Positions 4,781-45,661 are shown, numbered from the stretch's first letter. The stretch is DNA of 64,000 nt from Betaproteobacteria bacterium (GCA_019449455.1 JAGRPO010000088.1:459-64458); one strand, 5' to 3'. Translations and numbers: made by a program. The notes: generated from the letters alone by a model not told the origin.

Positions 4781-4892
4781 CGCACACCACTCACGAGCTG
4801 ATTCCCGTGGCGTTGATGGCAGTCAACATGGCGTCCGCCCGTTGGGATAAACATGGAACTTCAGGGCGGATCTCCAACGAAGGGAGGCTGTC

Positions 4893-9983: not shown

Positions 9984-10080
9984 CGCAATTGCGTTCGGTG
10001 CCGTACATACGCCATTCGCGGTTTCACGCATATTCGAGTCACGGTCGGCAATTCCCGCTGAATGACTGGGGGCGCACAAA

Positions 10081-22398: not shown

Positions 22399-22449
22399 GA
22401 CGGTAGGGGCACTGGGCGTTGTGAGGGCCCATGATACCCCGGCCGGCGC

Positions 22450-26265: not shown

Positions 26266-26294
26266 GGTCGTCCCGGCTCGTTCCTCGGCCGCGG

Positions 26295-26795: not shown

Positions 26796-28729
26796 GGGCG
26801 GCCTCCCAGGCGCACGACGTCGGCGTCCCCGGCGTGGATGCGCGGCGCGAGCTTGAACGCGTCCGAGAAGCAGTCGTCGGGCGCGAGCCCCTGCTTGGCG
26901 AACGCCGGCTGCGCGGCCTCGACCATCTTCACCGAGCCGCACGCGTAGATGCGATGCCCCGCGAGGTCGGGATAGTCGGAGAGGATCGCCTCGTGGACGA
27001 GCCCGGTGCGGCCCTCCCACGCTTCCCCGGGCGCGGGGTCGGAGAGCACGGGCACGAAGCGGAAGTTCGGATGCTCCCTGGCCCAGCGCTCGGGGAGCTC
27101 GCGCAGGTACATGTCGGCGAGCGTGCGCGTGCCCCAGTAGAGCACCATGGGCCGCGTGATCCCGGCGTGGAACGCGTGCTCCACCATGCTCTTCACGGGC
27201 GCGAAGCCGGTCGCCCCCGCGACGAAGATCACGGGCTTGGCGCCGTCCTCGCGCAGGAAGAAGGAGCCCACGGGCCCCTCGAAGCGCACGCGGTCGCCGA
27301 CCTTCATGGCGGTGAAGACGTGCGTGGTGAAGCGGCCGCCCTGGATGGCCCGGATGTGCAGCTCGATGGGGCCTTGCTCGTGCGGGGCGGTGGCGAAGGA
27401 GAAGGCGCGCTTCTGGCCGTCGTCGAGGAGGATGTTGATGTACTGGCCGGCGTAGAACGGTGCCTTCCCGCCGCCCTCCACCTCGAGGCGCACGCGCATC
27501 ACGTCCTTCGCCAGGAGGTCGAGCGAGACGACGCGCGCCTCGTGCACGGCGACCGGGCGGGCCGCCTGCGCCGTGGGCTCGTACTCGATTTCCACGTCGG
27601 AGAGTGGCTTGGCCACGCAGGCGAGGACGCGCCCGGCCTCGCGGTCGGCGGCCGTGAGGGCGCTTTGCTGGTAGGCGCCCAGCGCCACCTCGCCGTGCAG
27701 CACCGTGCACTTGCACACGCCGCAGCCGCCGTTGCGGCAGTCGAAGGCCATGGGCAGGCCGTCCCTCAGGCACGCGTCGAGGAGCGACTCGTCCTCCTTC
27801 ACCGGGATGATGCGGTTGTCCGGATGGGCCAGGACATGGAAGGCGCGCAATTCGCGGCGCCCGAACTTCGGCGGCAGCCACGGCGCCATGACGGCGAGCA
27901 GCGTGAGTCCTCCCACGAGCAGCCACAGGGTGTCGGGCGACCAGCGGTAGAGCAGCGCGTAGGTCGGCATGTAGAACCAGTCGAACTCGATCGCGGCGGC
28001 CATCGTCGCGAGGTCGGCGGGCCCCTGGCTCAGGGCCGGCTTCACGACCGAGAGCACGACCATGGCCGCGCCCAGCGCGGCCATCAGCGGGTTCGGGGGC
28101 AGCGTCTTCGCCTGCGGCACGCGGTGGGTGTGGATCCACAGGAGCGCCAGCACGCCGAGCGGCAGCCCGATGTGGAGGAAGGAGAGCAGCGAGAAGAACC
28201 GGTCGTTCACGCTGTCCGCGACCAGGAAGTTGCGCATGAGCAGCCCGTTGAAGACCGGGAGCGCGTCGAACCACTCGGCGGTGGCCGTGACCGTGAACGC
28301 CGCGAGCTGGTCCCACGGCAGCATGTAGCCGTTGATGCCGGAGGCGTAGACGAGCCACAGCACGAGCACGCCGCTCACCCACGAGAACCAGCGGAACCCG
28401 CGGTGGCGGTCGAAGGCGAAGTGGCGCAGGAGGTGCAGCGCCATCGTGAGCACCATGCCGTCGGAGGCGTAGCGGTGCAGGCTTCGCATGATGCCCCCGG
28501 CCCACTTCTGCCCGTGCGTGAGCCGCTCGACCGACAGGTACGCCTCGGTGACGCTCGTGTCGAAGAAGGCGTAGAGGTAGAGCCCGCTCGCGACCACGAC
28601 CCAGAACAGCCAGTAGCTGATCGCCCCCAGGTGGTAGAGCGGGTTCAGGTGCTCGCCGAAGATCGCGTTGGCGGCCCGCTCGGCGAGAAGGAACAGGCGT
28701 TGGAGCAGTCGCTGCAGGAGCTTGAGCAT
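26792..28729 (-). CDS. Fusion protein: dihaem cytochrome b + plant-type [2Fe-2S] ferredoxin + FAD/NAD(P)H ferredoxin-reductase module
   Basis: ORF 26792..28729. Cyt b: SLHRY...ALHLL, GYMLPWDQLA, FLHIGLPL...WIHTH. [2Fe-2S]: CRNGGCGVCKC...LACVA. FNR module: RAFSFA (RxYS-type FAD site), VAGATGFAP (NAD(P)H site), YACGSVKM. Confidence 0.85.
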   Translation of the reverse strand: MLKLLQRLLQRLFLLAERAANAIFGEHLNPLYHLGAISYWLFWVVVASGLYLYAFFDTSVTEAYLSVERLTHGQKWAGGIMRSLHRYASDGMVLTMALHLLRHFAFDRHRGFRWFSWVSGVLVLWLVYASGINGYMLPWDQLAAFTVTATAEWFDALPVFNGLLMRNFLVADSVNDRFFSLLSFLHIGLPLGVLALLWIHTHRVPQAKTLPPNPLMAALGAAMVVLSVVKPALSQGPADLATMAAAIEFDWFYMPTYALLYRWSPDTLWLLVGGLTLLAVMAPWLPPKFGRRELRAFHVLAHPDNRIIPVKEDESLLDACLRDGLPMAFDCRNGGCGVCKCTVLHGEVALGAYQQSALTAADREAGRVLACVAKPLSDVEIEYEPTAQAARPVAVHEARVVSLDLLAKDVMRVRLEVEGGGKAPFYAGQYINILLDDGQKRAFSFATAPHEQGPIELHIRAIQGGRFTTHVFTAMKVGDRVRFEGPVGSFFLREDGAKPVIFVAGATGFAPVKSMVEHAFHAGITRPMVLYWGTRTLADMYLRELPERWAREHPNFRFVPVLSDPAPGEAWEGRTGLVHEAILSDYPDLAGHRIYACGSVKMVEAAQPAFAKQGLAPDDCFSDAFKLAPRIHAGDADVVRLGGRP

Positions 28730-28738
28730 GGGGGAGGT

Positions 28739-29575
28739 TCAGCCGGCGGCGCGCAGCCGGCGGCGGTGGCGTTGCCATTCGCGCAGCAGGTAGACGAGCG
28801 TGGTGAGGAGGATCGACAGGCCCGCGAGGATCTCGATCACCACGCCGTAGTCCAGGCGGTACCGGCCGGTGCGCGGATCGTAGACGGTGCACAGCAGGCG
28901 AACGCGGTCGACGATGTTGGCGAGGCTCGCCGCGGGCAGGGGCGCGTCGGTGAGGAGCGCCTTCAGCGGGCCCACGAGCATCGACATCTCGAAGTTCTCG
29001 CCGTAGACCTGCGCGGCCACGCGGCCGTTCGCGTCGAGGAGCGTCACCTGCGTGAGGTGGTCGAAGCCGCCGGCGGAGGCGGCGTAGCTGAAGCCCAGCT
29101 CGCGCGTGATCGCCTCCACCACCCCGGCCTCGGGGCTGAGGAAGTGCCAGTCGCGGCGGTCGATGCCCTGCTGGCGGGCGAAGGCGCGCATCGCCTCGGG
29201 CGTGTCGTAGGGGTAGTTGAAGCCGATGGTGGCCAGGGAGTAGCGCCCCGGGCCCAGCGCGCGGTCGGCCTCGGCGACGGCCTTGGCCAGGAAACGCGTG
29301 GTGGTGGGGCAGACCTGCGAGCAGCCGGTGTAGACGAAGCTCACCAGCACCGGCCGGCCGCGAAGCTGCGACAGGCGGAAGGGACTCCCGTCACCGGCCC
29401 GGAAGGCGTGGTCGCCCACCGGGGTGCCGATGGCGCGCTGGCTGCGGTCGAGGGCCGCGTCCGGCTCCAGGGTGGCGCCCTCGGGCGCTGCTCGCGCCTG
29501 CACAGCGCCGAGGACTGCCCCGAAGCAGAGCGCGGCCGCCGTCAGCAGCCAGCGCGGTCGGCATCCGTTGCCCAT
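28739..29575 (-). CDS. SCO1/SenC copper chaperone with an extra C-terminal TM segment
   Basis: ATG at 29575 within ORF 28739..30337. Signal/anchor, then thioredoxin-fold motif FVYTGCSQVCPTT (CxxxC) and a conserved His in GFDHLTQV. Confidence 0.88.
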   Translation of the reverse strand: MGNGCRPRWLLTAAALCFGAVLGAVQARAAPEGATLEPDAALDRSQRAIGTPVGDHAFRAGDGSPFRLSQLRGRPVLVSFVYTGCSQVCPTTTRFLAKAVAEADRALGPGRYSLATIGFNYPYDTPEAMRAFARQQGIDRRDWHFLSPEAGVVEAITRELGFSYAASAGGFDHLTQVTLLDANGRVAAQVYGENFEMSMLVGPLKALLTDAPLPAASLANIVDRVRLLCTVYDPRTGRYRLDYGVVIEILAGLSILLTTLVYLLREWQRHRRRLRAAG

Positions 29576-29580
29576 GCGGG

Positions 29581-30480
29581 CTAGCCTCGCCAGGCCGCGT
29601 CCGCGATCACGCCGATGAGAAGTAGCGAGAGCTGGGCGAGCGAGGCGTGGAAACTGCGCATCGCGGTGGCGCGCGAAGGATCCCTGGCAAGGCGGGCCGC
29701 GGCCCGCAGGAAGAGGAAGCCCCCCGCGATCGCGCCTGCGGCATAGAGCGGACCCAGGCCGAAGGCGAGCGGAAGGAACGAGGAGAAGACGAGGACGACG
29801 GTGCCGGCGAGGACCGCGCGTGCCGCGCGGGCGTCGCCGACGACGACCGGCAGCATCGGCACGCCGGCGGCCCGGTAGTCGTCGTGGTAGGCGATGGCGA
29901 GGCTCCAGAAATGCGGCGGGGTCCACAGGAACAGGACCCACGCGAGCGACGCGGCGACGGGGCCGACCTCGCCCGGCGCGACGCTCGTGGCGCCGGCGAG
30001 CACCGCGAAGCTGCCCGCGAGCCCGCCGATCACGATGTTCATCCAGGTGCGCCGCTTGAGGACGACGGTGTAGACGACGCCGTAGAAGAAGGCGCCCAGG
30101 AACACGAACAGGGCGGCCACCGGGTTCACCGCGACGGCCGTCGCGCAGACGGCGAGCGCCAGCATCAGGCCGATCACGCCCAGCCAGAACGGCCCGTGCG
30201 TGAGCCGGCCGGTGACGAACGCCCGGTGGCGCGTGCGCCCCATGCGCGCGTCGAGGTCGCGCTCGACGTACTGGTTGAACGCGCCGGCCGAAGCGGACGC
30301 GGCGATGACGCAGGCCACCAGCAGGGCGATCTGCCACGCGCCCGCCGCCTGCCGGCCGGGGACCGCGAGGGCTCCCGCGAGCGCGGTGAGCCCGATCGCG
30401 AACCCGATGCGCAGCTTGAACAGGTCGAAGAACAACCTCACCTGGTCGCGCATCGGGCCTGCATGTCCATCTTCGCTCAT
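29581..30480 (-). CDS. ctaB: Protohaem IX farnesyltransferase (haem O synthase)
   Basis: ATG at 30480 within ORF 29581..31944. NQYVERDLDARMGRTRHR (UbiA-type motif) and LFLWTPPHFWSLA. Confidence 0.9.
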   Translation of the reverse strand: MSEDGHAGPMRDQVRLFFDLFKLRIGFAIGLTALAGALAVPGRQAAGAWQIALLVACVIAASASAGAFNQYVERDLDARMGRTRHRAFVTGRLTHGPFWLGVIGLMLALAVCATAVAVNPVAALFVFLGAFFYGVVYTVVLKRRTWMNIVIGGLAGSFAVLAGATSVAPGEVGPVAASLAWVLFLWTPPHFWSLAIAYHDDYRAAGVPMLPVVVGDARAARAVLAGTVVLVFSSFLPLAFGLGPLYAAGAIAGGFLFLRAAARLARDPSRATAMRSFHASLAQLSLLLIGVIADAAWRG

Positions 30481-30506
30481 GGCGGTCTCCCGGTCGGTCG
30501 GTTGGG

Positions 30507-32228
30507 CTACTTGAGCGGCCAGACGGTCGACAGGTACTTCCAGTTCACGAAGTAGTAGAGGATGAACGACGTGAGGAAGATCATCGCCAGCACGAAGGTG
30601 CCCGGCGCCACGAACCCGCCGATGCCGATGGAGCCGTGGCCCGACGGGGCGGCGGCGACCGGTACCGGCGCGGGCGCCATGCCCTGGCGGACCGGGACGT
30701 GCTTGAAGTCCGGCGTCTGGATCTTCTTGCCGAAGAACACGGAGCCCACGGTGATGGCGAGGTACATCCCGCCGCCGATGACCGCGGCGATGCCCGAGAC
30801 CGCCATGATGCCCATCATGAGATAGGCGGTGCCGGGGAACTCGTGCGGCAGGATCGCGCCCGAGAACGCCATGTCCCAGTGCCGGCGCGGCACGCCCAGC
30901 GTCCCGGCGCCCATCATGAACACCGAGAAGGAGCACATGCCGAGGCCGTAGACATAGGGCTGCCACTTCGCCATGCCCGGGAACATGACCTCGCGCCGGA
31001 AGAGCGTCGGGATGAGGAAGTAGGTGAGCGCCATGAACGCGAGCGTGGTGCCCACGACGACCGTCGCGTGGAAGTGGCCGGGCACGTAGATCGTGTTGTG
31101 GATGATGAGGTTCAGCTGCTCCGTGCCCATCATCACGCCCGAGATGCCGCCCAGGAAGCCGAAGCCCACGAGCGAGATGAACATCCCCGAGAAGCTCGGG
31201 TTGCCCCAGGGGGCCTTGCGCAGCCACTCGAAGAAGCCCTTGTTGAAGCCCTTCTCGCGCTGCGCCACCTCGATCGCGCCCGGCACCGTGAGGCCGTGCA
31301 CCATGGAGGCGAGCACCGCGAGGTACATGGCGTAGCTGGTGTTGAAGATCTTCCAGTTGGAGGTGAGGCCGGGGTCGGCGAGCAGGTGGTGGGCGCTCGC
31401 GAGCTGCAGGAAGAGGATGTAGAGGACGAAGGCGGTCCGGCTCACCTTCTCGCTCATCGGCTTCGCGCCGAAGACGATGGCGGCGATCGCGTACCACACC
31501 GACACGTGGGCCGCGACGTTGATCTGCTGCGAGGAGTGCCCGAACGCCCACCAGACGGTGCGGTACATGAGGGAGTCGATGTGCGACACCAGGCCCACGG
31601 ACCAGAGGAAGGTGGGGATCAGGATGATCGCGCCCGCGGCGATGGTGAAGACGGCGATGATCGCGGCGGTGACGGCCCCGAAGGTCACCAGCGGGATCGA
31701 GCCGTTGTAGGTCTTCTCCGCCTTGCCGACGACCAGCGTGCCGAAGAACACGAAGCAGGCGACGAGCGCGCCCACGGCGAAGAGGATGAGCCCGAGGTAG
31801 AAGAGCGGGTGCGCCCCCATCGGCACGTAGGAGGTGAACATCACGCTGGAGTCGCCCTTGAACACGGCGAAGTTGTTCGTGAGCGCGCCGACGATCATGA
31901 GCCAGAAGGCGACCCAGGCCACCTTCGGCGTCGCGAGCCGGCACTTGAGGAGCGTGGAGGCGGCGAAGTAGAGCACCGCGATCTCGAAGAAGATGATCCA
32001 GAAGACGAGCATGTCCAGCCCGTGCGCGGTGAGCGCGAGGTAGAACCAGTCGGGCGGCAGCAGCTTCACGGCGGGCCAGCGCGTGAGCGTGACCAGGAGC
32101 GCGAGGACTCCGCCCACGAGGAGGGAGACCACCCCCGCGACGGCGTTCCAGCGGATGAGCTTCTCGGCCGGCTCGTGGAAGACGAGGCCGGAGGACGGGC
32201 AGGTGCGGAAATTGCGATTGACGGCCAT
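30507..32228 (-). CDS. Haem-copper oxidase subunit I, B-family-like, lacking the cross-link Tyr
   Basis: ORF 30507..32228. TAHGLDMLVFW (helix II His), WWAFGHSSQQINV (CuB His; His+4 is Gln, not Tyr), ASAHHLLADPG (HH), VPGHFHATVVVG (HxH). Confidence 0.9.
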   Translation of the reverse strand: MAVNRNFRTCPSSGLVFHEPAEKLIRWNAVAGVVSLLVGGVLALLVTLTRWPAVKLLPPDWFYLALTAHGLDMLVFWIIFFEIAVLYFAASTLLKCRLATPKVAWVAFWLMIVGALTNNFAVFKGDSSVMFTSYVPMGAHPLFYLGLILFAVGALVACFVFFGTLVVGKAEKTYNGSIPLVTFGAVTAAIIAVFTIAAGAIILIPTFLWSVGLVSHIDSLMYRTVWWAFGHSSQQINVAAHVSVWYAIAAIVFGAKPMSEKVSRTAFVLYILFLQLASAHHLLADPGLTSNWKIFNTSYAMYLAVLASMVHGLTVPGAIEVAQREKGFNKGFFEWLRKAPWGNPSFSGMFISLVGFGFLGGISGVMMGTEQLNLIIHNTIYVPGHFHATVVVGTTLAFMALTYFLIPTLFRREVMFPGMAKWQPYVYGLGMCSFSVFMMGAGTLGVPRRHWDMAFSGAILPHEFPGTAYLMMGIMAVSGIAAVIGGGMYLAITVGSVFFGKKIQTPDFKHVPVRQGMAPAPVPVAAAPSGHGSIGIGGFVAPGTFVLAMIFLTSFILYYFVNWKYLSTVWPLK

Positions 32229-32238
32229 GGCGGTCTCC

Positions 32239-32793
32239 CTACCCTTTCTTCGGCTTGACGACGTAGAGCTTGCTCGCCATCGTGTGGTGGTTGATGCCGC
32301 AGTACTCGTTGCAGATGATCGAGTACGTGCCTTCCTTCGTCGGCGTGAGCGTCACGACGTGCTCGTAGCCGGGGTGGATCTGGATGTTGATGTTCTCGGG
32401 CTGCAGCGAGAAGCCGTGCAGCCAGTCGGTCGACATGATGTGCAGGCGGTAGGTCTGCCCTTCCTCGAGCTCGAGGACGGGCCAGAACTGCCAGAGGCGG
32501 GCGACGAGATAGACGTCGCTGCCGGGCACCGGATGCACCACGGGGATGTTCTGCTCGGTGACGGTGCGCACCGTGTGCTTGTCGACCATCGCCTGCGCCT
32601 TGGCGAGGTAGGCCTCGGGCGTGGTGCGGTAGGCCTCGTTGGAGAGGTTCTGCTTACCGTAGACGTGCCAGTACGGCATCATGAAGAACATCACCATGCA
32701 CCAGACGAAGGCGATGACGATCCAGGTGCCTTCGACGCGGTCCAGGGGCTGCTTCCACCAGAGTCGTTCGGCAGGGGGTTGTATGGCGCTCAT
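32239..32793 (-). CDS. Haem-copper oxidase subunit II with an intact CuA site
   Basis: ORF 32239..32793. It has one TM and then a cupredoxin domain with DWLHGFSL and CNEYCGINHHTM (CxExCGxxHxxM). Confidence 0.85.
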   Translation of the reverse strand: MSAIQPPAERLWWKQPLDRVEGTWIVIAFVWCMVMFFMMPYWHVYGKQNLSNEAYRTTPEAYLAKAQAMVDKHTVRTVTEQNIPVVHPVPGSDVYLVARLWQFWPVLELEEGQTYRLHIMSTDWLHGFSLQPENINIQIHPGYEHVVTLTPTKEGTYSIICNEYCGINHHTMASKLYVVKPKKG

Positions 32794-32817
32794 GTCGGCC
32801 TCGCGGGGTAGGAGTTC

Positions 32818-33000
32818 TTATTTGGCGATCGGAATGCCGACGATCTCCATCACGCCCCAGACGATGTACAGGACGGTGGGCATCGCGACGCCGAGGAACA
32901 GCAGGAGGAACGGGTTGTCGATCAGCTGCTGCATCATCGGGACCGGCTCGTCGTGCATGTCGTCGTCCGCCGGGGCGGGCGAGGCGGGTACCTGACTCAT
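32818..33000 (-). CDS. Small single-TM peptide, first gene of the operon (possible subunit IIa-like accessory)
   Basis: ATG at 33000 follows AGGAGGAG. MSQVPASPAPADDDMHDEPVPMMQQLIDNPFLLLFLGVAMPTVLYIVWGVMEIVGIPIAK. Confidence 0.5.
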   Translation of the reverse strand: MSQVPASPAPADDDMHDEPVPMMQQLIDNPFLLLFLGVAMPTVLYIVWGVMEIVGIPIAK

Positions 33001-33054
33001 GGGGTCTCCTCCTGGAATGGGGGGCGGGCCGCGGGGGCGACACGTCACGCAGGT

Positions 33055-33096
33055 ATGCTAGGCAGCCGGCCCGGGGAAAAAATTGAACCCGTTCAA
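33055..33096 (-). promoter_or_regulatory. Candidate class II Crp/Fnr(Dnr)-dependent promoter of the respiratory operon
   Basis: Perfect palindrome TTGAAC-CC-GTTCAA (33083-33096; TTGA-N6-TCAA core). On the minus strand the -10-like TAGCAT (33060 to 33055) begins 29.5 nt from the box centre, i.e. the classical -41.5 geometry. Confidence 0.5.
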
Positions 33097-33150
33097 GAAA
33101 AGCCGCTTTGGACCCCGGTGCCGTGGCAGATCGCCCGTCCGGCCGCTAAC

Positions 33151-34221
33151 ATGGAGCCCGTGAACGCCACCATGATCGATTCGTCCCCGGCGGCCACCGC
33201 CGCGGCTGCCCCGGCCGCCGGCCGCCGCGCCGTAGCGGCCTGGCTCCTCGCCTGCTGTGCCCTCGTCTTCGCCATGGTCGTCGTGGGCGGGGCCACGCGG
33301 CTCACCCACTCCGGCCTGTCCATCGTCGAGTGGCAGCCCCTGGTGGGAGCCCTCCCGCCGCTGAACGACGCGCAATGGGCCGAGACCTTCGGGAAGTACC
33401 AGCTCACGCCCGAGTTCAGGCTGCGCAACCACGACATGGACGTCGAGGGGTTCAAGACGATCTTCTGGTGGGAGTACTTCCACCGCCTCCTCGGCCGGCT
33501 CATCGGCGTGGCGTTCCTCGTGCCGTTCCTCTATTTCTGGCTTCGCGGGCGGCTCGACCGGCCGCTCGGGTGGAAGCTCGCCGGCATCTTCGCGCTGGGC
33601 GGGCTCCAGGGCGGGATGGGCTGGTACATGGTGAAGAGCGGCCTCGTGGCCGACCCGCAGGTGAGCCAGTTCCGGCTCACGGCGCACCTGGGGCTGGCGC
33701 TCCTCATCCACGCGGCCATGTTCTGGGTGGCGCACGAGATCCTCAGGCCCGCGCCCTCGGGCGCGCCGGCGGGCCTTCGCCGCGCGGGGCTCGCCTTCGC
33801 CGCCGTCGTCTTCGCGATGGCGCTCACCGGCGGCCTGGTCGCCGGCATCCGCGCCGGCTTCGCCTACAACACCTGGCCGCTCATGAACGGCCACTGGGTG
33901 CCGCCGGAGATCCTGATGATCGAGCCGTGGTGGCGCAACTTCGGCTACAACATGGCCACGGTTCAGTTCGTGCACCGGACGCTCGCGATCGTCGTCCTGG
34001 CCGGCGCCTGTTTCCTCGCCTGGCGCGTCTTCGCCACGCGCGCGGCGGGCACGCAGGCGCGCCTGGCCGCGGGAACGCTCGCCGCGGTCACCCTGCTGCA
34101 GGTGGCGCTCGGCATCGCGACGCTGCTGATGGCGGTCCCCGTCGGCCTGGGCACCGCGCACCAGGGCGGCGCCGTGGTCGTCCTCACCGCCGCCCTCTGG
34201 CTCGCCCGGGCCCTGCGCTGA
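33151..34221 (+). CDS. ctaA: Haem A synthase (COX15/CtaA type)
   Basis: ATG at 33151 within ORF 32953..34221. GGATRLTHSGLSIVEWQP, FWWEYFHRLLGR, VQFVHRTLA and GTAHQGGA are typical COX15 motifs. Confidence 0.88.
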   Translation: MEPVNATMIDSSPAATAAAAPAAGRRAVAAWLLACCALVFAMVVVGGATRLTHSGLSIVEWQPLVGALPPLNDAQWAETFGKYQLTPEFRLRNHDMDVEGFKTIFWWEYFHRLLGRLIGVAFLVPFLYFWLRGRLDRPLGWKLAGIFALGGLQGGMGWYMVKSGLVADPQVSQFRLTAHLGLALLIHAAMFWVAHEILRPAPSGAPAGLRRAGLAFAAVVFAMALTGGLVAGIRAGFAYNTWPLMNGHWVPPEILMIEPWWRNFGYNMATVQFVHRTLAIVVLAGACFLAWRVFATRAAGTQARLAAGTLAAVTLLQVALGIATLLMAVPVGLGTAHQGGAVVVLTAALWLARALR

Positions 34222-34841: not shown

Positions 34842-34883
34842 AGACTACCGGGACGGGCGCCGCGGCAATTTAAAGAAGATCAA
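34842..34883 (-). promoter_or_regulatory. Weak Crp/Fnr-like half-site promoter candidate for the hemerythrin-like gene
   Basis: TTAAAGAAGATCAA (34870-34883; only the right half ATCAA is canonical). The minus-strand -10-like TAGTCT (34847 to 34842) begins 29.5 nt from the centre. It shares the TCAAGAAAA flank with the 33083 box. Confidence 0.25.
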
Positions 34884-37776: not shown

Positions 37777-39714
37777 ATGGAAAAGTCACGCATTGTCGAG
37801 GCACTGGGCGAAGAAGGGCTGCGCCTGCCCGCACTCCTGAACGACGCGCTCGCGGCGAACGACCGCGCCAAGTACCTCTTCACCGTGCTCCAGGTCGCGC
37901 GGGGCCATGCGGACCACCCCGGAGGGCCCGCGCCGGAACTGCGCGCCGAGCGCGAGGCCGCCGGCCTGACTGCCGCCGGCTTCGACGAGGTTGCCGCGCT
38001 GGCGACCAGGGTCGGCGAGGACCGCTATTTCATGCCCGGGGTCGAGCGGCTGTGCGCGCGCCTGCACGCGGAAGTCGACGCGATGCTCGCGCCGCTCCAG
38101 GCATCGGGAGACGAGGCCGACGGGTTCGACGGGCGGCGCGCGCGGCTGGCCGCGCAGCCGTGGTGCGGCGAGGACGACCAGATCAGCGCGGAACAGATCG
38201 CCTCGCTCACCGCGGGCGGCCGGGAAGGCGCCGACACCGTCCACCGGCTCGTGATGGACATGCACAAGGCCCTGAACGGGCTGCAGGCGCGCATCGCGTC
38301 GGAGGCGATCGATGGCGCCCACGCCTACGGGATGGCGCAGGGGGACCGGGCGCTCGTGGCGGCGTTCATGCGGGGCGTGAACCGCACCGCTGCCCTGAAG
38401 CTCGACCACCCCGGCCTCGGCACGACCGCCACGCGGTCGGGCGCGAAGCTGGTGATCCAGAACGACATCGGGACGACCGAGGCGCACGTCCTCGTGGTGC
38501 ACGTCGAGGGCGGCCGCGTGACCCTCACGTACACCGACGTTCACATGCAGCGGCTCCTTTTCTTCCAGAGCCTCTTCGATGCGTGGCGCGTGGACTGGCA
38601 GGACACCCTCTCGCGCACCGACCGCACGATGGAGGACGGCGTCTACCACCTCTGCATCGGCTCCTACGCGGCCGCGGGCGCGGCCGAGCTGGAGGAGTAC
38701 CTCGCGTTCCTCGGCTCCCGCCTCGTCTTCCTCATCGACTGGAACCGCGCCCGCAAGCGCCTGCGACTGCTGCTGCCGAAGAAGGACCTGATGGATCTCC
38801 TCAAGTGGACGGCCGACAACGACCACGGGCACATGGCCTTCCTGCGCGCGGGCGGGGAGCAGATGATCTTCGACTCCCTCGCTTTCGTGTCGCGCGCGCC
38901 CGCCTCCTTCGGCGCCCGGCTGGACGACGTGCTGGGGCGCGCGGCGGCGGTGAACTTCATGCGCTACGTGATGCGGACCTGCGCGCAGGGCCTGATCGGC
39001 GGCCGCCCGGAGGGCCTCATCCGCGACGAGGTCCGCGCCGAGCTGGTGAGCTACTTCCGCTCGGCGCAGGAGAGCGTTCTCGACGTCGCGGCCGAGCACG
39101 CCGCGTTCGCCCTCGAGATCGCCTCCGGCATACGCGACGCGCTGGTGAACGCCGGCACGCCCTCGGCGGGCGAGGCGATCGCCCGCAACGCGCAGCGCGC
39201 GAAGGCGTGGGAGCACCGCGCCGACGATCTCGTCAACGCGGCGCGCGCGCAGGCGAGGCATTCGGAGCGCGCGCAGTCCTACCGCGACCTGATCGAGGTG
39301 GCCGACGACATCGTGGACGAGCTCGAGGAGGCCGCGTTCCACCTCGCGCTCGTGCCCCGCGACGCCGACGGCGATTCGCTGTGCGCGGCGCTGCGTCCCC
39401 TGGCCGCGCTCGCGGTCGAGAGCGTCCAGGAGTATCTCAAGGCGGTGGAGACCGCGCGCACGCTGCACCGCGGCAGCCCCCGGGAGGACACGCAGGATTT
39501 CCTCGAGGCCATCCACCGGATCATGACGCTGGAGCGGCGAAGCGACGAGATCCATCGCGCGGCCAAGACCCTGGTTCCGTCCCGGTCCGGAAGCTACGGC
39601 GCCCTCTTCGGCTTCATCGAGTGCGCGGGAAATCTCGAGGCGGCGATCGACGCGCTGATGCACACCGCGCTGCACCTGCGCGACGCGGTGCTGGGCGAGC
39701 TGGTGGTGCAGTGA
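37777..39714 (+). CDS. 645-aa protein: unknown N-terminal region of about 430 aa + DUF47/PhoU-like helical C-terminal domain
   Basis: ORF 37777..39714. The C-terminus has WEHRADDLVNAAR...YRDLIEVADDIVDELEEAAFHL and IMTLERRSDEIHRAAKTL (two E..aD.i repeats as in DUF47/PhoU). Confidence 0.65.
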   Translation: MEKSRIVEALGEEGLRLPALLNDALAANDRAKYLFTVLQVARGHADHPGGPAPELRAEREAAGLTAAGFDEVAALATRVGEDRYFMPGVERLCARLHAEVDAMLAPLQASGDEADGFDGRRARLAAQPWCGEDDQISAEQIASLTAGGREGADTVHRLVMDMHKALNGLQARIASEAIDGAHAYGMAQGDRALVAAFMRGVNRTAALKLDHPGLGTTATRSGAKLVIQNDIGTTEAHVLVVHVEGGRVTLTYTDVHMQRLLFFQSLFDAWRVDWQDTLSRTDRTMEDGVYHLCIGSYAAAGAAELEEYLAFLGSRLVFLIDWNRARKRLRLLLPKKDLMDLLKWTADNDHGHMAFLRAGGEQMIFDSLAFVSRAPASFGARLDDVLGRAAAVNFMRYVMRTCAQGLIGGRPEGLIRDEVRAELVSYFRSAQESVLDVAAEHAAFALEIASGIRDALVNAGTPSAGEAIARNAQRAKAWEHRADDLVNAARAQARHSERAQSYRDLIEVADDIVDELEEAAFHLALVPRDADGDSLCAALRPLAALAVESVQEYLKAVETARTLHRGSPREDTQDFLEAIHRIMTLERRSDEIHRAAKTLVPSRSGSYGALFGFIECAGNLEAAIDALMHTALHLRDAVLGELVVQ

Positions 39715-41336
39715 GCACGGTCGACGGCGCCTGCCCGGTCTTCGGGATCGGCATCGCGAAAGCCGGCACGGGAACGGGTGGCCTCGACCAGATGGGCTCG
39801 AAGGCCTTCAACCTGCAACGCATGGTGGCCGCCGGGCTTCCGGTGCCGCAGGCCTACGTGCTGGGAACCGGGTGGTGCGGGATGCACCAGCGCGATCCCG
39901 GCGCAACGCGGCAGGCGCTTCACGACGCGCTGGGCGAGTGGACGCGCCGCCTCGAGCAGGCCTGCGGGCTCGCCTTCGGCGGCGAGAGGAGGCCGCTCCT
40001 CGTCTCGGTGCGCTCGGGAGCGCCGGCGTCGATGCCGGGGATGATGGACACCGTGCTCAACGTCGGGCTGTGCGACCGCGCCGTGCGGGGCCTGCTGCGC
40101 CTCTCCGGCAACCCGCGACTCGCATGGGACTCGTACCGGCGACTCGTGCAGCAGTATGCCCAGGTCGTGCACGGCGCCAGGGGCGGCGCGTTCGACGAGA
40201 TCGCCGCCGCCGCCGTGGCGCAGGCGGGCGCGCAGGGCGTCCGCGAGCTCGACTTCGAGAGCCTCGCCAGGCTCGCCGCCGACAGCCTCGACCTGTTCGC
40301 CGACATCACCGGGGCGCCCTTCCCGCAGGACCCGCGCGAGCAGCTCGAGGCCGCGACGGTTGCGGTGCTCGACTCGTGGCGCTCGGCGCGCGCCACGGAA
40401 TACCGCCGCCTGCACGGCATCGCCGACGCCATGGGGACGGCGGTGACGGTGCAGCGCATGGTCTTCGGCAACGCCGGCGGAACCTCGGGCTCCGGCGTGG
40501 GGTTCACGCGCGATCCGGCCACCGGCGAAAACCGCCTCTACCTCGATTTCCTCTTCAACGCGCAGGGCGAGGACGTGGTGTCCGGGCGCCACGCCGTCAC
40601 CGACACGGCCCGGCTGCCCATGGCGCTGCCCGAAGTCGCCCAGCGACTCGAGGAATTGCGCCACGCACTCGAGTCCACGTTCGGCGACGCGCAGGAGTTC
40701 GAGTTCACCGTGCAGGACGGGCGGCTCTACCTGCTGCAGACGCGCACCGCCAAGCGCACGCCGTGGGCGGCGCTGCGGATCGCGGTGGAGCAGGTGCGCG
40801 AGGGCATCGCCACGCCCGCCCAGGCGCTCGCGCGCCTCGAAGGCATCGACCTCGCGGCCATCGAGCGCCGCCGCGTGGCCGACGAAGGCGAGGCGGCGCT
40901 CGCCAGCGCCGTGCCGGCGAGCATCGGCCTCGCGGTGGGGGCGATCGCGCTCGACACGAAGACCTGCGTGCGGCTCGCCGGCGAGGGCCGTCCGGCCATC
41001 CTGGTGCGCAACGACACGAGCACGGAGGACATCGCCGGCATCGCCGCCGCGAGCGGCGTCCTCACGGCGCGCGGCGGCCGGACCTCGCACGCGGCCGTCG
41101 TCGCGCGCCACATGGGAAAGGTCTGCCTCGTGGGCTGCGCCACGCTGCGGATCGACGAGAAGGCGCGCACGATCACCTTCGGCGGGGCGACGCGGCGCGA
41201 GGGCGAGACCATCTGCCTCGATGCGGAGAACGGGCGGGTCCTCGACGGCGAGCCCGAGGTGGTCGTCGAGCGCCCCGAGGGACTGCTCTCGGAGGTGGCG
41301 CGCTGGCGGGCCGGCTCGCCGTCAGTCCCGGCGTGA
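39711..41336 (+). CDS. Truncated pyruvate,phosphate dikinase-like protein (ATP-grasp nucleotide domain + swivel phospho-His domain; no PEP/pyruvate TIM barrel)
   Basis: GTG at 39711 overlaps the upstream stop (GTGA), in frame with ORF 38052..41336. LLVSVRSGAPASMPGMMDTVLNVGL, FPQDPREQL, GTAVTVQRMVFGN, NAQGEDVVSG, LYLLQTRTAKRT, TARGGRTSHAAVVARHMGK (His codon 41088-41090). The protein ends about 80 aa after the His. Confidence 0.85.
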   Translation: MSTVDGACPVFGIGIAKAGTGTGGLDQMGSKAFNLQRMVAAGLPVPQAYVLGTGWCGMHQRDPGATRQALHDALGEWTRRLEQACGLAFGGERRPLLVSVRSGAPASMPGMMDTVLNVGLCDRAVRGLLRLSGNPRLAWDSYRRLVQQYAQVVHGARGGAFDEIAAAAVAQAGAQGVRELDFESLARLAADSLDLFADITGAPFPQDPREQLEAATVAVLDSWRSARATEYRRLHGIADAMGTAVTVQRMVFGNAGGTSGSGVGFTRDPATGENRLYLDFLFNAQGEDVVSGRHAVTDTARLPMALPEVAQRLEELRHALESTFGDAQEFEFTVQDGRLYLLQTRTAKRTPWAALRIAVEQVREGIATPAQALARLEGIDLAAIERRRVADEGEAALASAVPASIGLAVGAIALDTKTCVRLAGEGRPAILVRNDTSTEDIAGIAAASGVLTARGGRTSHAAVVARHMGKVCLVGCATLRIDEKARTITFGGATRREGETICLDAENGRVLDGEPEVVVERPEGLLSEVARWRAGSPSVPA

Positions 41337-41364
41337 CCCCCGCGGGGTCGCGCCGCAATGCGGG

Positions 41365-44127
41365 TCAGTCCCAGGCCGGGGACAGGCACTTCGAGGTCCG
41401 GCGTGCCAGCACCGCCTGGAAATTCCGGACCGAGTCGCGCATGACCGGGGAGCGGCCGTCGTGGCAGGTGAGGCAGGCGCCCACGCGCAGGATCCGGCGC
41501 TGCTCCTCGACCGCGAAGGGCCGGGCGTCGTCGCGCGTCGAGACCATGCCGTCGCGCGCCCCGAGAAACGCAATCCATGCGTCGGCTGGAAGGCCATCGG
41601 CGGGCAGGCGGGGCGAGGAGGGCGTGAAGCGCCAGCGGCCCCCGGAGGGCGTCGGCCCGTAGCGCAGGTCGCCGCGGCCGTATCCGATCGCCACGGGATC
41701 GTTGTGGCAGGATTCGCAGGAGCGCGCCTCGCGCCGCGTGGTGTGCGGCTCGATGGGCGCGTAGAGCCTGCGGAACACCGTGCCCGCCGGGCGCCCGGGC
41801 TGTGCCGGCCGGTCGACGGTCAGGATCATGCCGGGCACGAACGTTTCGACCATGTCCCGGCCCGCACCGCCAGGCGATTGGCGACGCGCGACGCCGAGGG
41901 TCGGAAGGTCCGCGACGAACGGCCCGGACTTCTCGACCCATTCGCCGCGGACCTCGGCGCCGTCGATCCAGTCCCAGGCCGTTCCCGCCGCGTCGAACGA
42001 CGTGTGGCACGTGGAGCAACGCGGAGCCCATGCGGAGTGACAACTGCCGCACGAGAGACGCGCGTGTCCCCGGCCCTCCACGCAGACGCGGGCCGTGGGC
42101 TTGAGCGCGAGCCGTTCGCCGGTGCGCTTGCGCACCATGGCGGGCCGCCCCTCGGGATCGATCACGACGTTGACCAGCGCGTCGCCCTTCGCTGTCCGTC
42201 CGTGGCGGCTTGCGGCGGGCCCGGGCCAGGCGCGGATCGCAAGGATGCGCCGCGACTCGGGGTCGAGGGCGGACGAAGGCAACGTGGGCAGGCTCGCGCC
42301 CGCCGGCGCATGGCAGTCCGCGCAGGCGACCCTGAGCTGCCCGCTCTTGGTCGCGTGCGCCACGCCGTCTCCCATGACCTCGGCCGACGTGTGGCAGTCG
42401 ATGCAGTCGAGGCCGCGCTGGTGGTGGATGTCGGGGGTCACGCGCTCGAACACGCGGTCGCCCTCGACGACCCGATATCCCGCCGACAGCGGCCGCGCCG
42501 GGTCCGCCGCCTGCGCGGGCGGCTCGTTCATCTCGTGCCAGCCCTCGTAGCTCGTCGCGATGCGGCCGGATCGGCTGTGGCAACCGAAGCACTGGCCGTT
42601 TCCGATGTCGAGCGAGAGAGCCGGGTGCACCGTCGGCGCATCGGGCGTTCCGCCTTCCTTCTGGCGCTGGTAGCGGCGCAGCGCTTCGAGCGCCGCCGGG
42701 CCGTAGACGAGGTGGCAGGCATTGCAGCCGCCGCCCCTCGTGCCCTCGTCGTTCGGGCCGAGCGTCTCCTTCGCCGCGCCGAGATGGCACAACGCGCAAA
42801 GCTGGCGCAGGTGCGTGTCCGCCGCCGATCGGCCGAGCTGGCGGACATGGACGGGGGCGCGCGCGTCCCCGGGGGCCTCCTCCCCGAAGACCTTCCGGTC
42901 GACTCGCACGATCCCGCTCATGGTGGCCATGACCGACCGCTCGACCCTCGCGACGACGGATGCATGGCACGAGCTCTGGCCGCATCGGCCCTGTGCGGTC
43001 GCCATGTTGCCCGGTATCACGTCCATGCCGGCGTGCGCCCTTGCCTTGTCGAGAGTCAGCCCATCGCCGCCGTGGCACGACATGCAGCCGATGGCTTCCG
43101 GCCGGTGCGAATTGCCCAGGCCCGTGACGCCGCGATGGCACGCGAGGCACCCCTCGGGCCGGCCCATCGCGACGGGAAGCGGCACGGGCACTTCCGGCGT
43201 TGCCGCGAAGACGAAACCGGCGCGCGGATTGCCGGCCCCGGCCGGCCACCCCGGCGAGAACGCCCAGTTCTCTCCGCGCGCGAACGCCCCGACCGCGCAC
43301 AGGCCCGCATAGATCACCGCGACGGCGAGCAACGCGACCTTCGTCCCCGCCGCCCGGGCCGGCCGGATCTCGCGCACGGCGTAGAGGGCGCCCACGGCGA
43401 CGACCCCGCCCAGCACGACCGCGAGCGGCCACGCGGTCCAGTGCAGGATCTCCTGCAAGCCGAGGAAATACCACGGCCCCTTGAGAACGGGATCCCGACC
43501 GTCGTGCAGGCCCGGCGACAGGAAGAGCGAAAGGACGCCGGTGCACAGCGTGACGGCCACGAGCGCCGCCGTGCGCGGCCATACCCGTCGCGCGTGCTCG
43601 ATGACGAACAGCCAGACGACGATCGTCGCCGTCGCGGCATGCTGCACGTAGATCAACTCGAGCCGCTCGGCCGCTCCGAACAACAGCGTCGCCAGCAGCG
43701 GGCCGAGGAGCGGCACCTGGGTCGTCGCTTCGGTCACGATGCGAAGCGCCTGGCGGGCGTCCGCATCGCCGCGGAGCAGGAACCCCGACAGCATGATGAA
43801 GGCGAGGAGCGGCAGGGTCAGCGCGAGGCGAAGCCAGATGCCGCGGGGCACGCGCCGCTCGACCGGCGCCCGCAGGCGGTCCCACACGTGCGCGAGGGTG
43901 AGCAACAGGCATGCCTGGGCGGCCAAGTAGTGCAGGTTGCGGTAAAAGACCGCCGCGGGATTTGCCAGGAGCATGGCGGCGATGGACCCGTACCCGTCGG
44001 CCGGGTCGTAGGGCACCGCGACCGCCACGCCCGACACGGCCGCGATGACGAAGGCCGCGGTGGCGAGATCGCCGAGGGTGCCCCACCGCGACATGACGAT
44101 GGAGGACGCCTGGCTACGAGGAGGCAC
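41365..44127 (-). CDS. Fusion protein: cytochrome b6/subunit IV-like membrane domain + multihaem (about 12 sites) cytochrome c
   Basis: ORF 41365..44127 (GTG start; alternative ATG at 44094). Cyt b: NLHYL-(13)-AHVW, VQHAAT-(14)-EHARR, GPWYFLGLQEILH. There are eleven CxxCH motifs (CLACH, CMSCH, CALCH, CNACH, CFGCH, CIDCH, CADCH, CGSCH, CSTCH, CESCH, CLTCH) plus one CGQSSCH. Confidence 0.85.
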   Translation of the reverse strand: MPPRSQASSIVMSRWGTLGDLATAAFVIAAVSGVAVAVPYDPADGYGSIAAMLLANPAAVFYRNLHYLAAQACLLLTLAHVWDRLRAPVERRVPRGIWLRLALTLPLLAFIMLSGFLLRGDADARQALRIVTEATTQVPLLGPLLATLLFGAAERLELIYVQHAATATIVVWLFVIEHARRVWPRTAALVAVTLCTGVLSLFLSPGLHDGRDPVLKGPWYFLGLQEILHWTAWPLAVVLGGVVAVGALYAVREIRPARAAGTKVALLAVAVIYAGLCAVGAFARGENWAFSPGWPAGAGNPRAGFVFAATPEVPVPLPVAMGRPEGCLACHRGVTGLGNSHRPEAIGCMSCHGGDGLTLDKARAHAGMDVIPGNMATAQGRCGQSSCHASVVARVERSVMATMSGIVRVDRKVFGEEAPGDARAPVHVRQLGRSAADTHLRQLCALCHLGAAKETLGPNDEGTRGGGCNACHLVYGPAALEALRRYQRQKEGGTPDAPTVHPALSLDIGNGQCFGCHSRSGRIATSYEGWHEMNEPPAQAADPARPLSAGYRVVEGDRVFERVTPDIHHQRGLDCIDCHTSAEVMGDGVAHATKSGQLRVACADCHAPAGASLPTLPSSALDPESRRILAIRAWPGPAASRHGRTAKGDALVNVVIDPEGRPAMVRKRTGERLALKPTARVCVEGRGHARLSCGSCHSAWAPRCSTCHTSFDAAGTAWDWIDGAEVRGEWVEKSGPFVADLPTLGVARRQSPGGAGRDMVETFVPGMILTVDRPAQPGRPAGTVFRRLYAPIEPHTTRREARSCESCHNDPVAIGYGRGDLRYGPTPSGGRWRFTPSSPRLPADGLPADAWIAFLGARDGMVSTRDDARPFAVEEQRRILRVGACLTCHDGRSPVMRDSVRNFQAVLARRTSKCLSPAWD

Positions 44128-44533
44128 GGGCGATCCATCCTCCGGAAGCCGGGTCGGGCTCGATGCGCATCGGTGCGAGCGATCGCGTCGCCGGGCCGGC
44201 GGCGACGCTGCCGTCGGCGCGATAGCGCGACCCGTGGCATGGGCAGACCACTTCGTCGCCGACCACGCGCTCGATCCGGCAGCCGAGGTGGGTGCAGCGC
44301 CCCGAAAACGCGCGCGGGGCCCCGTCGCCGCCCCGGTAGACGATCGCGCCGTCGATGATGGAGAGCCCCATGGCGGCGTCGGCCGGGATGGACACCGCGC
44401 CGGGAGGCCGGCGGGACTGCTCGCGCCGAAGCAGGGACACGAGCAAGCCGGCGAGCGGGAGGCCGGCCACGATCGCGAGGGCCCGCCTGAAAAACCTTCG
44501 CCGAGACGCCGAGTTCGCGAGCCGGAAGCTCAT
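44114..44533 (-). CDS. Rieske [2Fe-2S] protein, Tat-exported
   Basis: ATG at 44533 within ORF 44114..45619. Tat signal SRRRFFRRALAIVAGL. CTHLGC ... CPCHGS boxes. Confidence 0.88.
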   Translation of the reverse strand: MSFRLANSASRRRFFRRALAIVAGLPLAGLLVSLLRREQSRRPPGAVSIPADAAMGLSIIDGAIVYRGGDGAPRAFSGRCTHLGCRIERVVGDEVVCPCHGSRYRADGSVAAGPATRSLAPMRIEPDPASGGWIARASS

Positions 44534-44722
44534 GGAATGCCTGACCACCACGCGGGCCCGGGGCGGACCAGCCGGTATTCTACGCCGGCGTCGCGCGGGG
44601 ACCGGCGATGGCCGGGCACGATGCAGCGCAGCAATGCGCGTGCCCTCGGTCGCGTGCCATACTGCGCCGGTCAAGCCCCGGATCGACACGGGGCGACATC
44701 CCGAAACCCGGAGGAGACCATC

Positions 44723-45661
44723 ATGAACCGCAGGATTTCCCTTGCGATGGCTGTTGCCGCAGCCCTCGCCGCCGGCGCCGCGCAGGCGCAAACGATCCGC
44801 CTGATGACCGGCCCGCAGGGCGGCGTCTGGGTGCCGCTTGGCGGGTCCCTCAAGAACATGTGGGAGAAGGCCATCCCCGGCCTGCAGGTGCAGACGATGC
44901 CCGGCGCCGGCATCGCCAACGTGCGCGGCGTGGACGAGGGCAAGGCCGACGTGGGCTTCGGCAACAGCATCACGTCCGTGGACGGCGTGGCCGGGCGCGC
45001 CCCGTTCCCGCACAAGGTGACGAAGGCCTGCCAGCTGGCGAACCTCTATCCCCAGTACTTCCAGGTGGTGGCGCTCGCGGCGAGCGGCATCAACGGCATC
45101 GCGGATCTCAAGGGCAAGAGCATCGCCGTGCAGCCGAAGGGCAACACGGCCGAGCTCATCTCGCAGCAGATCCTGCAGGCGGTGGGCCTGAGCTACCAGA
45201 GCGCCAAGGTGAGCTTCGTGAACAGCTACACGGATGCCGCGGCGCTGCTCAAGGACGGCCACGCGCAGGTCTTCACGCTGGGCACGACCATTCCCGCCTC
45301 CTCGATCATGGACGTGGCGGCCGGGCGCGACATCAAGATGGTGCCCGTGACCGACGAGATCGTCGCCGCGATGCGCAAGATGAACCCCGGCTACACCAAG
45401 GGCGCGATCAAGGCCGGCACCTACCCGAAGCAGGACAACGACGTGCCCGCGATCGTCTACTCGGCCCACCTCGTCGTCTCGTGCAGCCTGCCCGAGCAGA
45501 CCGTGTACCAGATGACGAAGGCGATGGCCGCCAACGTGGCCGACATGGCCGCGATCAACAAGGCGATGGCCTCGCTCACGCCGAAGATGATGGCCGAGGA
45601 CATCGGCGTGCCGTTCCACCCCGGCGCGGTGAAGTTCTACAAGGAAGTGGGGGCGATGTAG
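44723..45661 (+). CDS. TAXI-family TRAP transporter solute-binding protein
   Basis: ATG at 44723 follows GGAGGAG. It has a signal peptide, and TGPQGGVWVPLGG...NVRGVDEGKADVGFGN...HPGAVKFYKE is typical of TAXI receptors. Confidence 0.88.
   Translation: MNRRISLAMAVAAALAAGAAQAQTIRLMTGPQGGVWVPLGGSLKNMWEKAIPGLQVQTMPGAGIANVRGVDEGKADVGFGNSITSVDGVAGRAPFPHKVTKACQLANLYPQYFQVVALAASGINGIADLKGKSIAVQPKGNTAELISQQILQAVGLSYQSAKVSFVNSYTDAAALLKDGHAQVFTLGTTIPASSIMDVAAGRDIKMVPVTDEIVAAMRKMNPGYTKGAIKAGTYPKQDNDVPAIVYSAHLVVSCSLPEQTVYQMTKAMAANVADMAAINKAMASLTPKMMAEDIGVPFHPGAVKFYKEVGAM

Follow-up and report, generated by a model that had tools for sequence, protein, structure and literature searches.

A Rieske protein and a cytochrome b fused to an ExtM-like dodecahaem cytochrome c form a conserved two-gene unit on a betaproteobacterial metagenomic contig

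Rieske/cytochrome b complexes are central energy converters, and the replacement of their cytochrome c1 or f by long haem chains shows adaptation of this core to anaerobic and extracellular electron acceptors. A stretch of 64,000 nucleotides from a betaproteobacterial metagenomic contig (GCA_019449455.1, JAGRPO010000088.1:459-64458; the whole stretch is referred to as the window) carries, on the minus strand at positions 41365-44533, a Rieske gene followed by a single reading frame that combines a cytochrome b with a twelve-haem cytochrome c. Is this arrangement genuine, to which family does it belong, and what does it do with the electrons of the quinone pool? The module is a genuine, conserved two-gene unit, and it belongs to a family already known as the 'GPWY clade' of cytochrome b (PMC4122944), the split-gene form of which is Geobacter Cbc6/ExtMOPQ (PMC5877670, PMC2825233). 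The two gene products probably form a quinol-oxidising membrane complex of this clade, in which the fused haem chain takes the place of cytochrome c1 or f. For the window itself the outcome is mainly a correct annotation, not a discovery; more widely, the analysis links the fused form, Geobacter Cbc6/ExtMOPQ, and gene neighbourhoods with Psr-like, rhodanese, YedE-like, ExtI and ExtKL proteins.

The Rieske protein has the main features of the bc1/b6f superfamily, namely two cluster-binding boxes of the CxHxGC...CxCH type and an N-terminal twin-arginine translocation (Tat) signal with a membrane anchor (Table 1). The Tat consensus is S/T-R-R-x-F-L-K, which SRRRFF fits. A first-pass annotation of this DNA had proposed a Tat-exported Rieske protein with boxes CTHLGC and CPCHGS; the motif, the anchor, both boxes and the Pfam match bear this out. 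The top NCBIfam matches are the Rieske subunits of b6f and bc1 complexes. The two boxes are separated by 11 residues, a gap shared by every one of the 63 related Rieske genes examined. Box II carries the signature S..Y, found in 19 of these 63 relatives, and the other 44 have S..F. The signature does not track with phylum, and the type of quinone is therefore not inferable from it.

The Rieske and cytochrome b genes are adjacent and co-inherited. The fusion gene starts at GTG 44127, overlapping the Rieske stop by 14 nucleotides; the overlapping frames and the 920-residue partner of the earlier description are thereby confirmed. In the best 80 loci, to which the locus counts and the lineage list below refer, the Rieske gene lies directly upstream of the fusion in 69 and is the sole universally conserved neighbour. 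Public gene callers choose an alternative ATG at 44094, 11 codons downstream, which gives a protein of 909 residues; the GTG start is favoured because homologues have the same N-terminal extension. An identical open reading frame (ORF) is present on a 127-kb contig (JGI and ENA) and also on a Logan contig that was assembled separately; other contigs carry near-identical copies. The GC content at third codon positions (GC3) is 0.90, equal to that of the neighbouring genes, so the codon usage is native. The AlphaFold2 (AF2) model of the whole fusion protein has a predicted local distance difference test score (pLDDT) of 85 and a predicted template modelling score (pTM) of 0.75.

The N-terminal part of the fusion protein is a cytochrome b in which helices B and D each supply a histidine pair, the ligands of haems bL and bH. 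There are 13 residues between His66 and His80 and 14 between His163 and His178, which is the b6-type spacing, and none of the four histidines varies in either of two alignments, with 18 and 64 fused proteins. The b6-type spacing and the motif GPWYFLGLQ had both been read from the sequence in the first pass, and both are correct; the motif, GPWYFLGLQE at residues 217-226, begins with the recognised variant GPWY (217-220) of the motif of the quinol-oxidising (Qo) site (PMC4122944), and all 77 related fusion proteins examined share GPWY. A profile search of the PDB gives a cyanobacterial cytochrome b6 as the top match (1.8e-13), and the profile alignment places the helix B ligands on His86 and His100 of b6. 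Foldseek aligns about 320 N-terminal residues to cytochrome b of the bc1 complex (E 2e-6), with template modelling (TM) scores of 0.71-0.77 for b6. In the AF2 model the helices follow in the series A, ab, B, C, cd1, cd2, D, E, ef, F and G, after which comes a large extramembrane domain. Basic loops at residues 87-96, 180-185 and 251-262 indicate a cytoplasmic N terminus and a periplasmic C terminus; with seven helices and the loops so positioned, the C terminus is in the periplasm, as the attachment of c-type haems requires.

The C-terminal part, of about 600 residues, carries eleven CxxCH motifs (at residues 327, 348, 444, 468, 513, 575, 602, 693, 704, 804 and 885) and one CxxxxCH motif (CGQSSCH, at residue 382), in agreement with the count made in the first-pass annotation; from the protein's own Cys and His content, 0.03 CxxCH motifs would be expected by chance. 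All 36 Cys and His residues of the twelve motifs are invariant in the same two alignments of fused proteins, which removes the concern, raised at that stage, that they might vary among homologues. The twelve motifs are also invariant across the window domain and 27 stand-alone relatives (28 sequences), and exactly 11+1 motifs are found in 76 of 78 full-length relatives. In the same set of 28 sequences His365, Met400, His568, Met585 and His795 are likewise invariant, and His341, His501, His688, Lys667 and Cys914 are conserved in at least 90%. No other CxxCH motif occurs in ORFs of at least 80 residues in any frame of the 64-kb window; hence no gene for cytochrome c1 or f lies nearby, as had been stated from the start.

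The haem domain is homologous to the twelve-haem cytochrome ExtM of Geobacter. Residues 323-892 match model positions 18-579 of 599 in NCBIfam ExtM, with 246 bits and an E-value of 7e-73. The equivalog cut-off of this model (NF040943) is 800 bits; the match runs end to end but is far below the cut-off, so the window domain is an ExtM-like homologue and not an ExtM orthologue. Modelled separately, the C-terminal domain has a pLDDT of 83 and a pTM of 0.83. A Foldseek search of the PDB with this model found no structural relative at E <= 0.001, and for this part the PDB sequence profile gave only short, motif-level matches to NrfA and c7. A further point concerns the NCBIfam models themselves. 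NF040968 (FeS_ExtO, 416 positions) matches the same multihaem stretch as NF040967 (cytc_ExtN), with nearly the same scores and coordinates, and this 'iron-sulfur cluster-binding subunit ExtO' model does not match the Rieske protein of the locus. NF040968 may not represent the 14-kDa Rieske protein ExtO of PMC5877670.

Table 1. Features of the Rieske/fusion locus, in coordinates of the window
Feature	Position	Strand	Basis
Rieske [2Fe-2S] protein gene, 139 residues	44114..44533	-	ORF and translation; Pfam Rieske 1.2e-13
Rieske Tat motif SRRRFF (residues 10-15) and hydrophobic membrane anchor (residues 18-35)	44429..44506	-	read from sequence
Rieske cluster-binding boxes CTHLGC (residues 80-85) and CPCHGSRY (residues 97-104)	44222..44296	-	sequence
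Fusion gene, 920 residues from GTG 44127: cytochrome b/subunit-IV-like and dodecahaem cytochrome c domains	41365..44127	-	ORF; homologues; assemblies; AF2
Seven-helix cytochrome b domain (residues 1-285): helices A-D with His66/80 and His163/178; E-G equivalent to subunit IV	43273..44127	-	Pfam Cytochrome_B, profile, Foldseek, AF2, hydropathy
Qo-site motif GPWY in place of PEWY (residues 217-220)	43468..43479	-	sequence
ExtM-like dodecahaem cytochrome c domain (residues 320-920), 11 CxxCH and 1 CxxxxCH	41368..43170	-	NCBIfam ExtM, motif invariance
Beta-strand-rich subdomain (about residues 700-840) with haem motifs 10 and 11	41608..42030	-	AF2 secondary structure, two independent models, pLDDT mostly 80-95
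Divergent intergenic region between the Rieske gene and a TAXI-type TRAP solute receptor gene; presumed promoter	44534..44722	.	gene positions

Members of the family are frequent among bacteria of several phyla that live in soil, sediment and wastewater, and most of the public records are labelled 'hypothetical protein', 'DUF4405' or 'multiheme c-type cytochrome'. When 5.8 billion proteins were searched, 611 relatives were returned, the best 120 listed being mostly full-length proteins of 880-970 residues with 54-97% identity; a second search, with the Melioribacter homologue as the query, returned 1,147. More than 1,000 homologue clusters encode the fusion, and full-length homologues as a whole span 39-97% identity. 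In GTDB, searched with one genome per species, 199 species-level genomes from at least five phyla encode the fusion; they belong to Betaproteobacteria, Acidobacteriota, Gemmatimonadota, Verrucomicrobiota and the Bacteroidota/Ignavibacteria/Calditrichia/Balneolales group. The first-pass annotation had limited such complexes to a few lineages, for example anammox and some metal-respiring bacteria. This restriction is wrong: the distribution is far broader, and among the labelled hits and loci none bears the name of an anammox bacterium or of a member of the Planctomycetes. The lineages represented in the 80 loci are Betaproteobacteria (Burkholderiales, Rubrivivax), Acidobacteriota (Vicinamibacterales, Geothrix), Gemmatimonadales, Opitutaceae, Lacunisphaera, Ignavibacteria, Melioribacteraceae, Bacteroidales, Lentimicrobiaceae, Calditrichia and Balneolales; the taxonomy labels of metagenome-assembled genomes (MAGs) may include binning errors. 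Cultured carriers are Melioribacter sp. Ez-97 and OK-6-Me and Rosettibacter firmus, together with a UniRef entry assigned to Ignavibacterium album. In a neighbour-joining tree (no support values) the proteobacterial sequences fall into three or more clades that alternate with those of Acidobacteriota and Verrucomicrobiota, a pattern which suggests that the Rieske/fusion gene pair has been laterally transferred.

A HMMER search with the haem domain alone gave 986 clusters at the 50% identity level, 275 of them below 1e-30, and two architectures are seen among these relatives. In the fused form, of about 900 residues, the match begins near residue 300-330; in the stand-alone form, of about 580-670 residues, it begins after a signal peptide. 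Ten stand-alone members that were tested match ExtM at 160-340 bits, nine of them end to end. One split operon (L087) encodes in turn a Rieske protein (132 residues), a cytochrome b with KGPWY (295 residues) and an ExtM-like protein (599 residues, 11+1 motifs, with its own signal anchor) that aligns to fusion residues 318-909. Since the order of these separate genes is that of the domains in the fusion, the fusion joins two adjacent genes.

How does the module compare with known complexes? [quoted passage not shown] The window proteins share with this clade the Qo motif GPWY and the mid-to-high-potential Rieske signature, and the Ignavibacterium and Melioribacter proteins are full-length homologues of the window fusion, with 39-43% identity. 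They differ from the 2014 description in the haem domain, of which only the Pfam c7 match was counted there, whereas the domain has 12 haem motifs and is ExtM-like. The I. album fusion belongs to the present family, and its haem number was underestimated; the genome paper of this organism had stated that it lacks a cytochrome b-Rieske complex (PMC3362086). The lineages added here to the GPWY clade are Betaproteobacteria, Acidobacteriota, Gemmatimonadota, Verrucomicrobiota, Bacteroidales, Calditrichia and Balneolales.

In the Geobacter cluster GSU2930-2940, the genes encode the rhodanese ExtH, the porin ExtI, ExtKL, the 12-haem ExtM, the 10-haem ExtN, the Rieske protein ExtO, the cytochrome b ExtP and the membrane protein ExtQ (PMC5877670, PMC2825233); in G. 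sulfurreducens ExtM, ExtO and ExtP are GSU2935, GSU2933 and GSU2932, respectively. Sulfur respiration in Geobacter requires ExtKL (MccSep), a polysulfide reductase of the periplasm that has a weaker activity on selenite (bioRxiv 10.1101/2025.11.18.688581). The window module resembles this system in its Rieske protein of about 14 kDa, its b6-like cytochrome b, its subunit-IV-like membrane part and its 12-haem cytochrome, which is homologous over the full length. In contrast to Geobacter, cytochrome b, the subunit-IV part and the ExtM-like domain are here one polypeptide, the gene order differs, and the host is a betaproteobacterium that encodes oxidases. ExtH, ExtI, ExtJ, ExtKL, ExtN and ExtS are absent from the window, so that the ext/Cbc6 clustering is not reproduced there; it is reproduced in part in other lineages, with ExtI at seven loci and ExtKL at one (L005). 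In Acidobacteriota and Verrucomicrobiota the fused form, too, lies beside the ExtI porin and a rhodanese (compare ExtH), and once beside ExtKL.

Cytochrome b6f (PetB, PetD, PetC and PetA) is the closest solved relative of the b domain. The two have in common the 13/14 histidine spacing, seven helices in total, the subunit-IV-like part, a Qo motif on the ef loop, and the motifs and spacing of the Rieske boxes. Unlike b6f, in which b6 and subunit IV are separate, the window protein is a single chain of 920 residues; the position aligned with the haem-cn cysteine (b6 Cys35) is a threonine here, as it is in the consensus of the family; GPWY stands in place of PEWY; there is no cytochrome f; and a 600-residue, 12-haem domain is attached. 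In the anammox complexes Kuste4569-4574 and Kustd1480-1485, cytochrome f is replaced by hexa- or octahaem cytochromes c (PMC12954380). By their description they are similar in combining b6-like cytochrome b and subunit-IV-like proteins with a multihaem cytochrome c that replaces cytochrome f, but the 6- or 8-haem proteins are separate subunits there and are accompanied by NAD(P) oxidoreductase and HAO-like subunits. The window operon consists of two genes only, without a separate hexa- or octahaem subunit or an NAD(P) oxidoreductase subunit.

The neighbourhoods of the module in other lineages give some indication of its partners. A PhsA/PsrA-like molybdoenzyme with 4Fe-4S and NrfD subunits, split YedE/TsuA-like transporters and a rhodanese are found within 8 kb at 30 of the 80 loci; by group, the PsrA-like neighbourhood occurs at 0 of 13 loci in Proteobacteria, 8 of 17 in Acidobacteriota, 1 of 2 in Verrucomicrobiota and 21 of 47 in the Bacteroidota-related group. 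The ExtI porin matches at 282 bits (cut-off 150), and genes for molybdate transport and molybdenum cofactor are present at 10-14 loci of the Bacteroidota group. At L005, a Vicinamibacterales MAG, ExtKL (439 bits, cut-off 250) lies by ExtI, a LysR regulator and the Rieske/fusion pair. From these PsrA-like, rhodanese, YedE-like, ExtI and ExtKL neighbours, sulfur or selenium chemistry on the acceptor side is probable in other phyla. The partner enzymes beside the module vary by lineage, since in a Rubrivivax MAG (L019:10917-13075) NrfH (166 bits, above the cut-off) and an NrfA-like pentahaem nitrite reductase follow 121 nucleotides after the fusion gene. As a side observation, the ExtKL/MccSep homologue at L005:3495-4460 (minus strand) ends at residue 321, as compared with the 423 positions of the model; a UGA codon for selenocysteine within the frame would shorten the ORF in this way.

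The domain composition, the topology, the cofactor residues, the obligatory pairing of Rieske and fusion proteins and the homology to ExtM are shown by the sequence, its conservation and the predicted structure. On this basis the following arrangement appears likely. The Rieske protein would be exported by Tat and held in the membrane by its uncleaved signal helix. In the 920-residue partner, the b6-like helices A-D would carry the two b haems and helices E-G would equal subunit IV, and the C terminus would leave the membrane in the periplasm and continue into the 12-haem c-type cytochrome homologous to Geobacter ExtM. Quinol would be oxidised at the GPWY Qo site; one electron would pass to the mobile Rieske head with its cluster and from there to the covalently attached 12-haem chain, standing in for c1 or f, while the second would cross the membrane through the two b haems. 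The haem chain may then span the periplasm to a soluble or outer-membrane acceptor. We infer the direction of electron flow, the operation of a Q-cycle and the identity of the acceptor. The architecture of a non-canonical complex without c1, as claimed in the first-pass annotation, thus stands, but the role of the haem domain as no more than a wire is a matter of interpretation, and from the gene contexts in other phyla it may have a dedicated partner or chemistry in sulfur/selenium metabolism. For Geobacter Cbc6 the comparison suggests a function in quinol oxidation feeding periplasmic sulfur or selenium reduction, which is testable in Melioribacter, Rosettibacter and Ignavibacterium.

Several observations weigh against this assignment. 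When the profile is aligned with b6, helix D falls out of register; consequently, spacing and invariance are what equates His163/178 with b6 His187/202 and sets the register of this helix. A stand-alone ExtM-like gene (L088) ends a Psr/YedE-like/rhodanese cluster that contains no Rieske or cytochrome b gene, so the haem domain can work without the membrane module. In the window, tblastn with PsrA-like, PsrB, NrfD, YedE-like, rhodanese and ExtI queries found nothing, nor did MerR-like, ExtKL, NrfA, NrfH and decahaem cytochrome queries, and putative partner genes are likewise absent near the closest betaproteobacterial relatives examined. In this betaproteobacterium, then, the operon stands alone, without a partner gene in the 64-kb window. 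Multihaem cytochromes with bis-His haems are usually of low potential. The S..Y signature of the Rieske protein falls in a class labelled high potential, above 260 mV (PMC4122944), and because of this difference downhill transfer from the Rieske cluster to the chain is not self-evident. Finally, a 2026 review lists the Geobacter cluster as Cbc6/CbcMNOPQR and calls its role unknown (PMC13591261).

The S..Y signature is one reason to consider the opposite direction, in which a donor in the periplasm or outside the cell (Fe(II), reduced sulfur, arsenite or a partner enzyme in its reduced state) would feed the haem chain, and the chain would reduce the quinone pool via the Rieske cluster, in the manner proposed for bc complexes that operate in reverse. 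The GPWY and APWY clades were set apart from the PEWY and PDWY clades, with a mid-to-high-potential Rieske protein, and reverse operation was argued for APWY (PMC4122944); the window Rieske protein has the high-potential S..Y; haem-copper oxidases are encoded about 9 kb away in the host; and some relatives come from MAGs whose labels indicate an iron-rich setting (L015, 'FeB_7'). However, the conserved neighbours elsewhere are reductive enzymes (Psr/Phs-like proteins, the polysulfide reductase ExtKL, and NrfHA), the window contains no known Fe(II)- or sulfur-oxidation genes, and electron direction is not something that can be read from sequence. Such reverse operation is possible, but we regard it as unlikely.

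It is doubtful, in turn, that the ExtM-like domain is itself the terminal reductase of polysulfide, selenite or another chalcogen, with a specially ligated haem. The pair would then form a complete, horizontally mobile respiratory branch, whose dodecahaem domain would also be the terminal catalyst for a periplasmic sulfur or selenium (or other) substrate, and the site could be a His/Cys haem at Cys914 together with the beta-rich subdomain. If true, this would explain why the betaproteobacterial copies, which have no partner genes nearby, need none. Apart from the two genes nothing is conserved as a unit, and they pass between phyla together; the beta-rich subdomain is conserved and has no structural relative in the PDB; Cys914, which belongs to no haem motif, is kept in at least 90% of the superfamily, stand-alone forms included; and His/Cys-ligated haems are hallmarks of sulfur-metabolising cytochromes (MccSep preprint, 10.1101/2025.11.18.688581). 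The stand-alone gene inside the Psr/YedE-like/rhodanese cluster at L088 points the same way. On the other hand, the domain has no active-site motif of a known multihaem enzyme, it matches NrfA only marginally and over a short stretch (75 residues, E about 1e-3), and the conserved His and Met residues suffice for ordinary axial ligands of most haems.

An assembly or annotation error that merged two distinct genes, one for a cytochrome b and one for a multihaem cytochrome, which the first-pass annotation had named as a possible flaw and for which one might cite the split genes of L087 and Geobacter, is rejected as extremely improbable, given the uninterrupted ORF in the JGI/ENA and Logan contigs and in near-identical copies on others, the same architecture in more than 240 listed homologues of 880-970 residues and in hundreds of homologues overall, the seven helices that put the junction in the periplasm where c-haem attachment needs it, and the uniform, host-like GC3. 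The quinol-oxidising complex with a fused haem chain is therefore retained as the preferred assignment.

The surroundings of the operon in the window include genes for BamC, DapA, alanine dehydrogenase, a tripartite ATP-independent periplasmic (TRAP) transporter and a haem-copper oxidase, which fit a proteobacterium capable of respiring oxygen. The two-gene operon is flanked by a convergent gene for a phosphoenolpyruvate (PEP)-utilising enzyme and by the divergent TRAP transporter gene. Close betaproteobacterial relatives of the operon lie in unrelated contexts, save one syntenic relative (L084) with 81% identity. The intergenic region upstream of the Rieske gene is presumed to serve as the promoter region, by position only, because scans of 41000-45000 gave no sigma-70 promoter consensus and no terminator, and a search of the window gave no FNR-type box upstream of the operon.

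Some further features of the window were noted. On the convergent side, at 37777-41336 (plus strand), a 645-residue protein with a weak PhoU_div match is translationally coupled, by a 4-nucleotide overlap at 39711-39714, to a 541-residue protein that has PPDK_N and PEP-utilizers domains, without the catalytic C-terminal domain of PPDK. This gene pair is kept in the 81%-identical relative (L084) and ends 28 nucleotides from the stop of the fusion gene.

A second respiratory cluster, at 22450-34221, contains two further cytochrome b fusion proteins that are 45% identical to each other. Its genes lie at 23262-24683, 24676-26574, 26792-28729, 28739-30337, 30507-32228 and 32239-32793 on the minus strand and at 32812-34221 on the plus strand. 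One fusion (645 residues, motif EFDWFY) combines cytochrome b with a 2Fe-2S ferredoxin and an FAD/NAD-binding reductase, and the other (motif PLDWFY) combines it with two 4Fe-4S domains and an FlpD/MvhD-like domain. Beside them are a divergent COX1-like gene (473 residues), an SCO1/SenC-like gene, a haem-copper oxidase (COX1 and a small COX2-like subunit) and COX15. These fusions match the 'PDWF-FeS' branches of PMC4122944, and their cytochrome b is only distantly related to that of the GPWY fusion (24% identity over 237 residues, E 0.015).

FNR/Crp-type boxes (TTGAT-N4-ATCAA, at most 2 mismatches) occur 12 times in the window, for example at 4813-4826 and 34870-34883, as compared with a mean of 4.15 in shuffled sequences; none of 100 shuffles reached 12. 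Two genes for regulators of the Crp/Fnr family are present, at 10066-10782 and 21685-22449. The sole RNA gene detected by Rfam and tRNA scans is a tRNA-Arg (ACG) at 2268-2344 on the plus strand, far from the Rieske/fusion locus.

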